A stretch of DNA of 64,000 nucleotides from Escherichia coli (GTDB taxonomy: Bacteria; Pseudomonadota; Gammaproteobacteria; Enterobacterales; Enterobacteriaceae), in assembly GCF_044324785.1 (NCBI RefSeq), contig NZ_CP172127.1; one strand, 5' to 3'. Positions 44,201-50,200 of the stretch are shown here, piece after piece. Each line of letters begins with the position of its first letter. The stretch's first letter is position 1. Made by a program: the position numbers.

Positions 44201-47200
44201 GGCGTTTCAGGTTTAACTTCTGCTTTTGCAACGGGAGCTTCAGTAGGTTTCGCTTCAGGAGCTGGTGCGGCAGGTTGACTATTGGCAGGCGGGGGCGTTT
44301 CTGTTTCGGCTTTTTTATCATCACAACCCGTGAGACCGAGGGCCATGATGGCGACTATAATAGCGGAAGATAATAAATTCCTTTTCATTTAATTGCCTTA
44401 TAAATATATAGATAAGAGAGATAATATTTTAAATGAAAAAATGATCCGTCACTATACACATTTTGCTTATAAACAAACCGAAATCATTCACACCCCGAAT
44501 AATTCCTGCGACTTAAAATATAAATCGCAGGAAGCTATTTTAATTACCCGCTCTACCACTGGCGCAGGATATAAACTCTCACCTACATTCCATAACGTTC
44601 AGAAATAGCAGCATGCTTCTCTTCATTCGCCCCGGCTTCTTTGGCAAGACGCCACCAGCACAACGGATGTTCCCAGTCAGCGGTCAATTCGTGCAAGGTC
44701 TTATCGATATCACCTTTAGAAACTGAACGCGGCGCGCTGATAACAAAGTAGAACGCGGGCAGCGGCTGTGCATCTTCTCCCTGCTGGCTGTCCGTTAACG
44801 TATAGTCCTCGTTACTGTTGCTCCAGTAGTACCAGTTTCGTTCACGGAGCGCCTCACGGAAGACATTAAACTGTTCTTCCCCAGGCATGACACCTTCACA
44901 GAACCAGGACTCGCCGTACTCAGTCGGGATAATGGTTTGCAGGCAGGCATAAAGTGGCGTGAAATTCTTCCGTTCTTCCTCATCCTCTGGTTGGGTGTTC
45001 AACATTTCTGCATCGAATACCACAACTTCATCAACATGTTGCGGATAATCGGTCCGGTAAGTTGGCTCAATGATCCTTGCTGTTACCGGCCCAATACGTT
45101 GAGCATAGTAATAGCGGTATTCATAATTTTCCCGGAAGCGAATGTTTAGCAGCCCCCATTTTTCGTCGATAAAACCTTCACCTTCCGTAAGTTCGATTTC
45201 CAGTTCAGCAGCAATAGCACGAACCAAATCCCATTGTTGCAGGATGCTGGCGGTCGCCATGATATCCCACTGGAGATTTCGAATATCTTCTTCACGGCTA
45301 ATCATCAGTTGCTGCAATTGTTGTAAATAATCCAGCTGTCGATCCCAGGCTTCCTGTTTTTGTGCTGCCCAGGAGCACATGCGATAAACGCCAACCCATT
45401 CACGCCCTTTTTCGTTTTGCAGCAACTGTTGCCCAATCGACTCCAGTTCACTCCAGTCTTCCTGTTGGTTGATCACTCGCGCACGGAACCACAAGGCCAT
45501 ATGTAGCAGCCCCGCCTGTTCATACTGCTTCGCCAGGTGCTCAATGGTTTGCAGATCGTCACGGTGGAGCAATAAATCCAACAGATCGAAGCAGAGATTG
45601 TTATCTTCCTGGAGGTGGCTTTCGACGTAGCGTTGCAGAAGTTCAATCGACTCATCAATCGCATTACAGGCATTTAACGCATTGACCAGTTTGCCCAGCA
45701 ATTCCGCATCATCTGGCGCGTTCAGGTAAGCGCGGCGGAATGTTTCGACGTCTTTTTCTGGATCTGGCTGCGTTTCTTCGTCGCTATTTTCAGGTACTTC
45801 TACAACCGGACGAGCAAGCAACTCCGCCTCTTTGGCGGCGATTTTTTCACTCAGTTCGAGAAACTCGCGATCAACCCCCAGTAACGCGCGTAATTTTGGC
45901 ATGTGTCGCTGGGCCAGTTTCATCGCTATTTTGGCAACCCAGACGGATTCACGCTCCAGCGCCAGGGTGATTTGCAGTTTTGCCAGATTAACCACTTTGC
46001 GATGCGCCCCGGCCTGTGAACGTTGCTCCAGCATTTTCTGGATGATGCGCGCCAGTTGCCAGTTGTTTCTTTGTGGATGACGGGGAAGTAACACAGTAAT
46101 GATTTTCAGCCATGACCCCCATGAATGGGGAGTCAGATCTGACCAACGCGGTAATTCCTCCCAGACTTCTTCGTCCTGCCCGCATAACGCCATGATGTAC
46201 AGTTTTTTGAGGTGATTACTAATGCGGTCGCGGCCCCAGTAATCATTGGCTTCTGTCAGCTCATCAATCAGTATGCGTGCTTCATCATAACGCTGAAGTT
46301 CAATCAGAATATCGGCACGAGTATAAAGTAATGCATCAATATCATCTTCCCCGGCTGCTTTAACTGCGTCGATTTGTCGATCCAGATAAGCCAGTGCCTC
46401 CTCTATTCTTTTGGAATCTATCAGTGCACTGGCATATTCAGTGGACAAACACTGAAAACAGCTCCAGGTCGGATCAATCCGCGCGATGGTTTCTTCACAT
46501 ACCGCCATGCGTTCATTCGCCCAGCCAGGTGCATCAATATTTTCGTAGCAGGCGGATAAATCCTGGGTAACGCAGATAGATTGTGGGCAATCTTTTGTCT
46601 CTTCCCGGTGCGCTTTTTCAAACAGCGCCACCACGTCTGGCAGTACTTTTTCGCCTTCTTCGCGGTTAGTGAGACGATGGCGCATTTCCCAATGACCAAT
46701 AAAAATCTCCAGCCACGGATTTTTTGCCACCTGGGTAAGTGCTTTTACTTCAGGTAACAGCGAATCGCACTTTTCCATTTGCAGGTGCATAACGCCTTCC
46801 GAATAATCATCGATAAGTTGCGGAATATACTCCTGCCCGGCATCGCGTAACTCCTTAGTATATTTGTGATACCACTCCCATATATCCATTTTATTTTCCT
46901 TGATTAATTAAGACAGGAATAACCTGAGTAAAATCTTCCAGTGCCTGATGTAAATCCCACTGCTGTTCTTTATTACCGCTGGAGCACAGAATCACTTTCA
47001 GCGATTTTAATAACCGTAATGCTGCCGCTGGCTGTTGATGGTGTTGTAATGCCGTCACCAGTTGCATGACACAGGGGTTATTAAGGTTGATATAGAGACT
47101 TGAAGTTTTAGATTTTTGGATTTGCGAGGTAAATTGCCGCGCCAGCATTAATGCAGCGGTACTGATGCGTTTATCTGCGTCATCCTGTTCGAGAATTTGT

Positions 47201-50200
47201 TTTAATTCTGCTTCGCGGTCTGGCGTGACCACGAGCGGTAAAACCGCTGGTTCGAAGCGGGAGATAATTAATTGCTCGCCATCACAGAGATGCTCTTCCA
47301 GATATGCAACCTGCTCTTCGGGTAATTCTGCCAGGCTGAACAACTGCTCATTACCCGTTTGCGTACCGACTTCGATAATCCGGCAGTGATATAACAGCGC
47401 CCAACGACGTAAAAATGGCACCACCGCATAACGATCGCCACGGGCTACGGGCCGTTGCAGAATATGAAACAACATCTCTTCAAAACCGCCGTCGCGGCTT
47501 AACAGAATATGAATACTGTTATTAACGCGTAAATCCTTCGCCAGCAGCGCACCTTTTGACGTTGGCACCTGCAGGCGGTCTTTGAGTAAATCAAACAGAC
47601 GATCATCACACAAGGCCGCACCCAGCAACGCTTCGTTGTGGCGCATTAATACACGCCGCCAGATTTCTGGCTGGTTTTGTGCGAGATCGGACAAACCTGA
47701 AATCAGCGCCTCTTTTAGCGCCTCCTGTACCGCAACCCAGGTTTCATCCCGCTGGAGATCTTCCCGGCTCGCCGTCGGCGTCAGTTTCGATGACTCAATC
47801 ACGCCGCCAATAAATCCGGCCCAGGGCGGTAACAACTCACGCGCTTCATCATCCAGTAACATACCGCGCAAAAACAACGACAGGTTGCGGTTATCGCTGG
47901 TGCCGTAGGTTGCGCCATCCTGAATCCATAAAATCCCGACCGCATCGCTCATCCCCGCAGGTACTACCGGAATGGTGCAAATCGGTTCGAAGGAGGATTC
48001 AAACTGGGCGGCAAAGGCGAGATTTTTACGCTGCACCAGCGCGCGGTGCATGGTTACGCCTTCGGGGGCAACTTCACGCCACGGTGGTTGAAGTTTATTT
48101 ACCGGCTCGCCGGCATCGCCGACATAGACCGGTTCGTGCAGCAATATGCAGTAGCGGGAAAGAACGCGGTTCAGCAAATTGTTACTCGCCAGATGGCTAT
48201 ACTCTTCTTTGAGCGTCAGAATCACCTGCGTTCCCGTTTCCGAGGACTCATACGGCGTAACGGTATATTTTTGCCCGTCAGTAGAGTGGTATTTCCAGCG
48301 CTGATCCGGCGTTTGCCAGGATGTGGTCAACACCGTAACCTCTTTTGCCAGCACAAAGGCCGACAAAAAACCGAGGCCGAACATACCAATTAAACCGGTG
48401 TTGTCATCCTGCTGGCGCAACATTCGGGTATAACCCACGCCCACTGTCGCCAGGAAGCCGTGAATTTCACTTTCTGTCAGTCCCGCACCGGTATCGGTAA
48501 TGGTGATGATGGACTTCGCCACGTCTGCCACCACACGAATCGCGTTATCCTTTGGCGCATCGGGCTGCTCAATCCTGCGGCGAACGATCGCATCATGGCC
48601 GTTCTGCACCAGCTCGCGCACGGCAACCACGGGAGTGGAGTAAAGATGCTTACTAAGCACCTCAATTAAACCGTTTAAATTAACTTCTGTAGAATATGAA
48701 CTGCCAGGTAACTGTAATGTACTCATTTTTCAATACTCATAATCCATCACCCACTATTGAAAATACATTGCTGTTTTTACAACCGGTGCAAGGTTTGTTA
48801 TTTTCATTCACGCATCGGAAACATTTATTTATTGACGCGATGATTAAAACAAAATGTCTTATATAAATAATGATTAATTCTTAATAGGATTAATGCGACT
48901 GGAGTATATCGATATAAACCGGAGTTAACGAGATAATTTCTTGTGGTGAAATTATTATTTAAATGCTGAATAATATATTGAGGATTATTTAATAGAAAAA
49001 TAAAACCGCAATCCAGAATCAGAATTGCGGTATTTCTTTAATTATGAATCAAACGCTGCGGATGGGTATAAACCGTTGCCCGACCCAGTTTACAAAAGCC
49101 CACCAGCGTCAAATTACAGCGTTCAGCCACTTCTACAGCAAGCGTGGTCGCGGCAGACACCGCAAACAAAATCTCTACGCCACACATCGCCGACTTTTGC
49201 ACCATTTCATAACTGGCACGGCTGGAAACCAGCACCGCACCTTGCTGCCAGCTTTCCCCTTCTTGTGACCGGCGGCCTAACAGTTTGTCCAGCGCCACAT
49301 GGCGACCCACGTCTTCATGCCCGCCGACCAGTTCGCCAGATGGCAACATCCATGCAGCGGCGTGAGTACAACCGGTCAGTTGCCCCACTGGCTGGAAATC
49401 ATTGAGATGACGTAATGCATCATCCAGTTTGTTGAGATCAAACGTCTGGGTGAACGGCAGCGGCTGCACCGGTTTTCCGATATCGTTAAGCTGTTCCACG
49501 CCGCACACGCCGCAGCCTGTACGCCCGGCCAGCGCCCGGCGACGTTCCTTCAACCCCATAAAGCGGCGGCTGGAAAGCTCAATTTGAACTTCAAGACCAT
49601 TACAGGAAGGAGCGACATCCATGCCGAAGATATCGCGCGGACTTTCTATTATCCCCTCGGAAAGCGAAAAACCGAGCGCAAAGTACTCAAGGTCTTTGGG
49701 CGACGCCATCATCACCACATGCGAAATGCCGTTGTAGACCAGCGCAACGGGAACTTCTTCCGCGACCTCATCTAACCGTGGGTGTTGTAAATCATCACGC
49801 CGCCATAACTCAATTTGACGAACACCTGTGATATTTGTCACATTTTCGATTTCTTTTTGCTGTGTTTTTTTCACTTTCTCTTAACCAGATAAGAACACAC
49901 ACACCAACATTATGGTATTCTGTTACAAACCCTTCCTGGATGGAGGGAAATTGAGCCAATTCTGGACCTTTGCGGCCCCTTCCGCAAAGAAAAATAACTC
50001 CCACTCCCTGCACACGCAGCAAGCGAATGTAAATGGGACGTGACAATGTCGAAACAAGGAGCAATCCATGCAGGTCAGCAGAAGGCAGTTCTTTAAGATC
50101 TGCGCTGGCGGTATGGCAGGCACCACGGCAGCGGCACTGGGTTTTGCACCCAGCGTAGCACTCGCGGAAACTCGGCAGTATAAACTGCTGCGCACCCGCG

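Follow-up and report, generated by a model that had tools for sequence, protein, structure and literature searches.

The 64,000-nucleotide stretch of Escherichia coli DNA analysed here (contig NZ_CP172127.1 of assembly GCF_044324785.1; hereafter the window) carries, between yiiG and fdhD, a two-gene operon in which the gene for a divergent Hsp90-family ATPase is followed directly by the gene for a large protein, the partner. We found that this pair recurs in fixed order across several phyla, that its Hsp90-like members form, judged from their sequences, one clade distinct from HtpG, and that the partner combines a tetratricopeptide repeat (TPR) scaffold with an invariant Cys/His module. The best reading, to which we assign a probability of roughly 0.5, is a dedicated two-component Hsp90-TPR chaperone or remodelling module in which the partner serves as co-chaperone or adaptor. 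The operon consists of the following elements.

46891..48726, minus strand: Hsp90-like gene, encoding a 611-amino-acid (aa) divergent Hsp90-family (GHKL) ATPase (listing of open reading frames, ORFs).
44583..46889, minus strand: partner gene, encoding a 768-aa protein (ORF listing).
46887..46901, minus strand: operon junction, TAA-A-ATG plus Shine-Dalgarno sequence (read from the sequence).

Both ORFs lie on the minus strand with the coordinates and the 1-nt gap given in an earlier inspection of this DNA (the original prediction). At the junction, the stop codon TAA of the Hsp90-like gene (46893-46891) is followed by a 1-nt spacer (46890) and the ATG of the partner gene (46889-46887); an AAGGA Shine-Dalgarno sequence is located at 46901-46897, within the Hsp90-like gene and 8 nt 5' of the partner ATG. 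The two genes are probably translationally coupled. The original prediction had described them as a coupled pair outright; the tight linkage held, and the coupling is graded here as probable. Because dN/dS (the ratio of nonsynonymous to synonymous substitution rates) is low and full-length homologs of both proteins occur in many phyla, the two ORFs represent genuine genes rather than chance reading frames.

As had been proposed, the 611-aa protein is a full-length paralog of Hsp90, different from the housekeeping htpG product. Its best NCBIfam match was NF010683 (PRK14083, 'HSP90 family protein'), with 285 bits over residues 13-571 aligned to model positions 8-562 of 604; the HtpG model NF003555 gave 194 bits. 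Both scores are below the curated cut-offs, 455 bits for NF010683 and 371 bits for NF003555. The original prediction had staked itself on the protein scoring with HATPase_c/Hsp90 profiles, and Pfam identified HATPase_c_3 (E = 1.5e-8) and the HSP90 middle domain at residues 274-353 (E = 1.1e-7); the N-terminal ATP-binding domain comprises about aa 13-200. TRAP1 and E. coli HtpG were the top sequence matches in the PDB (residues 10-359, E about 1e-29 to 1e-26).

The motifs RELVQNGHDA, ITDTGAGLT and GMFGLGFLSAF, on which the earlier assignment had been based, were all found in the 611-aa protein. Residues aligned to TRAP1/HtpG include E38 (catalytic Glu), N42 (Mg-binding Asn), D45 and D78 (adenine-binding Asp), together with D78/G80/G82 (D-x-G-x-G) and the lid hinge G114/G117/G119. 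In the middle-domain catalytic loop of Hsp90, the Arg of 'SRE' (R380 in yeast) contacts the gamma-phosphate of ATP; R321, the middle-domain catalytic Arg in 'TASREDLQ', aligns to the corresponding position in 'LSRELLQ' of TRAP1. Among 81 partner-linked paralogs, E38, N42, D45, D78, G114/G117/G119 and R321 were kept in 80-81, R321 being invariant (81/81), so the catalytic residues and the Gly-rich lid that had been singled out for checking are intact. From these motifs the protein is predicted to be a catalytically competent Hsp90-type ATPase clamp.

Seven distant paired paralogs scored 250-290 bits with NF010683, likewise in end-to-end alignments (full-length architecture), and 165-210 bits with the HtpG model, below both cut-offs. 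Across phyla, the paired Hsp90-like proteins show 52-62% identity. Since they score under both the HtpG and the 'HSP90 family' cut-offs, they are, by profile comparison, one distinct non-HtpG clade, sister to NF010683 and not members of it. RefSeq, through its annotation pipeline PGAP, labels the Hsp90-like protein only 'ATP-binding protein', because the clade has no curated model. A normal htpG co-exists with the paired paralog in E. coli and Pseudomonas aeruginosa. A search for a MEEVD-like C-terminal tail on the paired paralogs found none; their tails are variable and non-acidic (LINQGK, LLAR, LLGQ and others).

In 85 of the 88 informative loci, defined as those with a partner homolog and enough flanking DNA, the partner gene was immediately preceded, on its own strand, by the Hsp90-like gene. 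These 88 loci came from 7 exact-protein look-ups, 76 of 80 species-representative genomes, 3 remote metagenomic members, Salmonella Infantis and Nonomuraea. The linked pair was present in Enterobacterales, Xanthomonadales, P. aeruginosa, several Betaproteobacteria and an alphaproteobacterial metagenome-assembled genome (MAG), and also in Holophaga (Acidobacteriota) and one Chloroflexi MAG. Nearly all Xanthomonas and Stenotrophomonas species representatives recovered carried it; in Salmonella it was variable, and in E. coli it was found in 254 of 5,426 complete genomes, always single-copy and always chromosomal. Members of the partner family were found in P. aeruginosa, Xanthomonas, Stenotrophomonas, Cronobacter and some E. 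coli and Salmonella lineages, among others.

Among paired loci the order, Hsp90-like gene and then partner gene, was fixed. The median spacing was 24 nt, with overlap or a gap of 10 nt or less in 19 of 80 loci, and in the three remote metagenomic members (L094-L096) the genes showed an ATGA-type overlap or abutted directly. A search for a third conserved gene around the pair returned only shadow ORFs inside the two genes. The flanking genes were housekeeping genes that differed between taxa. The original prediction had allowed that the pair might prove to be a widely conserved, already characterised operon; it is widely conserved, yet it has not been characterised. In Cronobacter, two tandem Hok/Gef-family toxin genes lie just 5' of the pair (loci L003 and L004, 4894-5596), and genes for a dynamin-like GTPase and YjcZ lie 3' of it; none of these neighbours is kept in other taxa.

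In the partner protein we delimited the following parts.

46437..46751, minus strand: partner aa 47-151, Cys/His module (conservation in 236 members).
45204..46436, minus strand: partner aa 152-562, TPR/alpha-solenoid scaffold (AlphaFold2, profile matches).
44586..45167, minus strand: partner aa 575-768, C-terminal alpha/beta domain (AlphaFold2 model).

The AlphaFold2 model of the 768-aa protein, built from 42 homologs, had a mean pLDDT (predicted local distance difference test score) of 91.9, with a short low-confidence linker near aa 360-376. It predicts a solenoid of 28 helices over aa 1-562, formed by helical hairpins throughout aa 152-562, and an alpha/beta domain (aa ~575-768) set apart from it. 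A single-sequence profile search gave weak TPR signals only; the family profile matched consensus TPR proteins and the TPRs of OGT over ~154-286 and ~365-537 (E = 1e-45 to 1e-12). When the full-length model was compared with the PDB using Foldseek, only generic TPR scaffolds were retrieved (IFT-A, Ctr9, Ski3, OGT and APC/C), with TM-scores of 0.30 or less. The scaffold, aa 152-562, is also the most variable part of the protein (conservation per 50 aa, 0.40-0.52). The partner had been described from its sequence as helical and without an assignable motif: the solenoid agrees with the first half of that description, and the TPRs, the invariant Cys/His module and the alpha/beta C-terminal domain overturn the second.

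For conservation we compared 236 diverse full-length members of the partner family, which share a median of 31% identity with the query. Of 29 positions conserved at 95% or more, 18 fall within residues 47-151. The conserved residues of this module are W59, H66, C101-P102-Q103, C106, D110, D119 and C144-x2-C147, and all of them except W59 (that is, H66, C101, P102, Q103, C106, D110, D119, C144 and C147) are 99-100% conserved. Because of the C-x4-C ... C-x2-C pattern and the invariant His, we propose aa 47-151 as a candidate metal or redox centre. Apart from weak TPR matches, Pfam and NCBIfam searches with the partner, the family alignment and the N-terminal module alone returned nothing, the N- and C-terminal modules remaining without a match, and PDB sequence-profile searches with these two modules gave nothing significant. 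Among the non-significant matches (E = 0.83), CPQSIC at aa 101-106 (46586-46603) resembles the CPQxxC zinc-ligand pair of the NSE2 SP-RING (PDB 2yu4).

The C-terminal domain is modelled as a beta-meander plus a ferredoxin/ACT-like half and contains a conserved acidic loop, P-E-D-E-E-E-R, at aa 634-640. It is confined to the partner family and has no enzyme-like structural neighbour. The partner is predicted to be cytoplasmic, according to the Psort annotation of the Salmonella ortholog. A profile search of 1.84 billion representatives identified about 600 partner-family clusters (50% identity) at E <= 1e-30; nearly all of the best 150 clusters were ~730-800 aa long with end-to-end matches, indicating a common architecture of ~760 aa.

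Between E. coli alleles, dN/dS was 0.035-0.047 for the Hsp90-like gene, 0.09-0.11 for the partner gene and 0.03 for the flanking fdhD. On these estimates, both genes of the pair are under strong purifying selection. The Hsp90-like gene is the more conserved of the two, with the partner evolving at about 5 times the rate of the ATPase. Two allele classes of the pair occur in E. coli, about 96.7% and 91.4% identical to the window. Synonymous divergence (dS) between alleles (window 44583-46889 versus L013 1500-3806) was 0.46 for the partner gene, 0.24 for the Hsp90-like gene and 0.15 for fdhD, and the amino-acid differences in the partner cluster in aa 1-50 and 151-250. The deep partner alleles suggest either old allelic lineages or recombination inside the operon.

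The pair of P. aeruginosa (L005) has the same gene order and lies beside bra and flg genes; its partner is 41% and its Hsp90-like protein 57% identical to those of the window. From gene order, we take this locus to be PA1068 (Hsp90 family)-PA1069 (hypothetical). This assignment is supported by a report in which PA1069 'appears operonic' with an Hsp90 gene and was detected as a calcium- and biofilm-associated protein (PMC4053335). PA1069 is AmrZ-activated (PMC3946381), its protein is surface-responsive in a proteome (PMC5541441), and its mRNA was about 4-fold lower at the higher of two growth temperatures (PMC4957987). In the literature searched, PA1069 appeared only in omics lists, and we found no functional study of PA1068/PA1069, of 'Hsp90xo' or of an Hsp90-TPR pair. 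The pair thus has neither a name nor a functional description there, in agreement with the earlier failure to match it to a named system.

The case for treating the two proteins as one machine is built on an intact Hsp90 clade and its near-obligate, tight, fixed-order linkage to the partner across phyla, together with the lack of a third conserved gene, purifying selection on both genes and their housekeeping-like behaviour. The pairing of an Hsp90 paralog with a dedicated partner, as originally predicted, is strongly supported and extends to a large family of such pairs. Among the options listed in the original prediction, a chaperone-type module fits best. In such a module, the 611-aa protein would be a catalytically competent Hsp90-type ATPase clamp and the 768-aa protein the obligate co-chaperone or adaptor of this paralog. 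The N-terminal Cys/His module of the partner may bind a metal, most likely zinc, or act as a redox switch, and may dock on or regulate the Hsp90 paralog; client or ligand binding would fall to the variable TPR solenoid and to the C-terminal domain peculiar to the family. The focus of conservation in the Cys/His module, together with a very conserved Hsp90, is what would be expected if the module were the interface. The TPR solenoid is a fold used by eukaryotic Hsp90 co-chaperones. We infer a physical complex, metal binding, the adaptor role and the nature of the client, and binding in particular from genomic linkage.

Several observations weigh against this reading. Three partner homologs, in Thorsellia anophelis (L078), on a metagenomic contig (L012) and in Nonomuraea gerenzanensis (L098), have no Hsp90-like gene within 4-7 kb. 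They are intact, 26-32% identical and all at the distant edge of the family, and they imply that a partner gene need not lie next to an Hsp90 gene and that its product might function independently of any Hsp90. The neighbours of the Thorsellia and Nonomuraea genes are unrelated (nicotinate phosphoribosyltransferase, histidine kinases). In the AlphaFold2 model, C101/C106 lie at the N-terminal end of helix 102-135 and C144/C147 at that of helix 143-158; in a hairpin the two Cys pairs would be far apart and may not converge on a single Cys4 site. Without a MEEVD-like tail, binding by the canonical eukaryotic TPR clamp cannot apply, and any contact with the partner must use another surface of the Hsp90 paralog. 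The lower PA1069 mRNA level in warmer cultures and the lack of a sigma-32 motif upstream of the operon (see below) indicate that this is not a classical heat-shock gene. A 608-aa ORF beside the L012 partner was considered as a divergent Hsp90 and rejected, its sequence being unrelated.

The same linkage could arise if the partner were the obligate client of a private Hsp90 that folds, assembles or metal-loads the 768-aa solenoid, the output then being whatever the partner does alone, perhaps sensing or scaffolding through its C-terminal domain. We consider this unlikely, although the pair has no third conserved gene and no identifiable client, large proteins built of helical repeats and bearing metal sites may plausibly be hard to fold, and partners without an adjacent Hsp90 are to be expected if the partner carries the function. 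The predicted fold is very confident and regular (pLDDT 91.9), conservation is higher in the Hsp90 paralog than in the supposed client, and a 1:1 private chaperone kept across several phyla would be unusual. Alternatively, the operon may encode a signalling or regulatory pair in which the Hsp90-like protein is a nucleotide-gated switch, as in MutL- or MORC-type GHKL proteins, and the partner, with its ACT/ferredoxin-like C-terminal domain, is a ligand-, metal- or redox-sensing scaffold controlling an unlinked pathway. This too seems improbable, because all Hsp90-specific features are kept, including the middle-domain catalytic loop and full-length similarity, and neither protein has a DNA-binding or output domain.

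An anti-phage defence or conflict system, with the TPR protein as sensor of a phage component and the GHKL/Hsp90-type ATPase as switch or effector, would account for the patchiness of the pair in E. coli (254/5,426) and its variability in Salmonella, and also for the ~5-fold faster evolution of the partner and its deep alleles (dS 0.46 versus 0.15 for fdhD). GHKL ATPases and TPR sensors are both known in defence systems, and the N-terminus of the ATPase weakly matches Tiamat TmtA (E = 1e-5, residues 13-138). We nevertheless regard such a function as highly unlikely. PADLOC found no match to the partner, and that of the ATPase is limited to the generic GHKL domain. There is no nuclease, protease, NADase or pore-like domain, and the C-terminal domain resembles no enzyme. 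At the loci examined the neighbours are housekeeping genes with no defence-island context; the pair appears syntenic and genus-wide in Xanthomonas/Stenotrophomonas and keeps the same position in both Escherichia and Superficieibacter; both genes have a low dN/dS; and no such system is described in the literature searched. The anti-phage or toxin option of the original prediction was therefore not borne out, with no PADLOC match beyond generic GHKL, no effector fold, no island and essentially no plasmids or phages. A known defence system was likewise rejected as an identity for the pair, PADLOC on both proteins having given the weak generic GHKL match only.

Matches to the partner were found in 3 of 72,556 plasmid records, two of them chromosome-sized: NZ_LT559118.1, an 11.85-Mb replicon of Nonomuraea, and NZ_CP131792.1, an 847-kb replicon of P. 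aeruginosa, are both filed as plasmids. Phage records gave no genuine match, the sole record (AFYI01000005.1, filed as phage) being a 156-kb chromosomal whole-genome shotgun contig of Salmonella Infantis. Because these records are chromosomal, matches to them are no evidence of mobility.

We compared the locus with genomes that lack the pair. In such E. coli genomes yiiG directly adjoins fdhD, which agrees with the K-12 layout given in the original prediction. The extra DNA extends from 44547 to 49036 of the window. An 8-bp direct repeat (TTTAATTA), of which empty-site genomes have a single copy, bounds the 4,498-bp segment. The features of this site are as follows.

44539..44546, no strand assigned: left copy of the 8-bp direct repeat TTTAATTA (empty-site comparison).
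49037..49044, no strand assigned: right copy of the 8-bp direct repeat TTTAATTA, overlapping the fdhD stop codon (empty-site comparison).
49005..49031, minus strand: intrinsic terminator of fdhD (10-bp stem followed by a T-run).
48727..49004, minus strand: intergenic region 5' of the operon, presumed promoter-bearing (G+C content, motif search).
44503..44533, minus strand: hairpin 3' of the partner gene (sequence; comparison with pair-less genomes).

The fdhD terminator stands between fdhD and the operon, and in genomes without the pair the hairpin at 44503-44533 comes directly after fdhD. The 278-bp region upstream of the operon has a G+C content of 27% versus 51% for the window, as AT-rich as had been noted earlier. 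On the coding strand it contains no strong sigma-70 match, and searches for sigma-32, sigma-54 and sigma-E consensus sequences in it found none. The genes themselves have G+C contents of 51% (Hsp90-like) and 49% (partner), against the window average of 51%.

The order fdoG-fdhD-[pair]-yiiG is shared by E. whittamii, unnamed Escherichia species and the genus Superficieibacter, and in Salmonella Infantis the pair adjoins fdhD. DNA identity with Superficieibacter is 73% for the module and 76% for the flanking fdhD. No integrase, transposase, insertion sequence (IS) or terminal inverted repeat was found at the pair segment. Because the same site is occupied in relatives, the G+C content is host-like and marks of mobile elements are lacking, deletion is preferred to insertion: the operon is probably an old chromosomal resident of the fdhD-yiiG site that was deleted in most E. 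coli. Repeated loss of an old resident pair by deletion is the simplest history, and a deletion between the 8-bp repeats more likely gave rise to the K-12 arrangement, which would then be derived.

The pair had originally been called inserted, and a recently acquired islet between yiiG and fdhD would explain its absence from 95% of E. coli genomes, the flanking repeat as a possible target-site duplication and the AT-rich upstream region. That origin is hardly credible given the site and orientation shared with E. whittamii, further Escherichia species and Superficieibacter, the position beside fdhD in Salmonella, a module divergence similar to that of fdhD, G+C of 0.49-0.51 versus 0.51, the lack of an integrase, transposase or terminal inverted repeat, and E. 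coli alleles that differ by up to about 9% in DNA, implying long residence. The claim of insertion was thus abandoned in favour of the shared, host-like site without integrase, IS or inverted repeats.

Other genes in the window showed some peculiarities. A gene for a 464-aa carbohydrate porin (40895-42289, minus strand) lies between rhaM and frvA; this stretch is accessory, being at least 80% covered in 1,377 of 5,426 E. coli genomes. At 42637-43300 the frv operon is cut short: frvA homology stops near 43041 in most E. coli, and the ~250 bp that follow have homology solely to the 3' terminus of frvR, which in strain 06-00048 is a 'transcriptional regulator' remnant. The window lacks frvB and frvX along with the bulk of frvR, all of which strains E22 and G47-1 (L001, L002) possess. 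For a backbone gene, yiiG (43333-44388) is unusually divergent, with about 92% DNA identity to the common E. coli allele; other strains carry a still more different allele annotated 'DUF3829 domain-containing protein'. fdoG (50068-53127) appears as two ORFs, 50068-50655 and 50704-53127, split by an in-frame stop that is the known selenocysteine codon of formate dehydrogenase O, an ordinary feature. RefSeq annotates fdoG as one coding sequence of 3,051 nt. The window copy is 95-99% identical to fdoG in practically every one of the 5,426 complete E. coli genomes, which places the window in E. coli or a very close relative.

One non-HtpG Hsp90 clade is now defined by a testable rule: it is encoded with a ~760-aa protein that has TPRs, an invariant Cys/His module and a domain seen in no other protein family. 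If the two proteins do form a complex, they would provide a tractable bacterial model of a TPR partner steering Hsp90 and a handle on the function of non-HtpG Hsp90s, as well as a function for the family of about 600 clusters labelled 'tetratricopeptide repeat protein' or 'hypothetical'. A more far-reaching version, which we put forward tentatively and with some doubt, is that the partner is the first dedicated co-chaperone of a bacterial Hsp90, part of an ancient, phylum-spanning Hsp90-TPR partnership independent of the eukaryotic MEEVD/TPR-clamp system, in which the Cys/His metal centre would be a redox or metal switch gating the ATPase toward specific clients. An Hsp90 chaperone with a TPR partner is of a known kind, and no such partner has been described in bacteria. 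Bacterial Hsp90 is described as acting without co-chaperones (PMC6986101), and few of its clients are known (PMC11687934).

Deep groups of bacterial Hsp90 paralogs have been noted since 2004-2006 and never explained. Groups B and C rest on phylogeny and were intentionally excluded from functional analyses (Chen et al. 2006, PMC1525184; Press et al. 2013, PMC3708813); like the paired clade, they are deep non-HtpG bacterial Hsp90 lineages without an assigned function, and the paired clade cannot be placed in any of groups A, B and C of Chen et al. from the texts of the papers. From NF010683 the paired paralogs differ in scoring 250-290 bits, well under the 455-bit cut-off. With HtpG and TRAP1 the Hsp90-like protein shares a length of about 610-650 aa, the Bergerat motifs and the catalytic Arg loop of the middle domain; it differs from HtpG in that it cannot be aligned after residue ~385 (194 versus 371 bits) and is encoded with a large TPR partner (85/88 loci). 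Tiamat TmtA shares only the generic GHKL domain (PADLOC PDLC03972, E = 9.6e-6, residues 13-138 to model positions 22-131 of 1,302): the match covers ~110 of 1,302 positions, and TmtA has neither the Hsp90 middle domain nor a TPR partner and lies in another genomic context.

Among dedicated or switchable chaperones, Hsp33, with its Cys4 zinc switch, is comparable by analogy only, through the four invariant Cys of the partner, with no homology detected. The same applies to HscA/HscB, the dedicated Hsp70 pair of iron-sulphur (Fe-S) assembly, which also combines a specialised paralog with its own co-factor; no homology was detected, and no Fe-S or other pathway gene was found in the neighbourhood of the pair. 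The partner has no homology to eukaryotic TPR co-chaperones beyond generic TPRs; they have no counterpart of its Cys/His module or C-terminal domain, and the MEEVD tail is missing from the bacterial paralog. Like Hop/Sti1, PP5, Tah1, UNC-45 and Tom70, however, the partner is proposed to be a TPR protein functionally tied to Hsp90, and it resembles UNC-45, also a large protein of helical repeats, in having a distinct domain outside the TPRs in which a client could be held.

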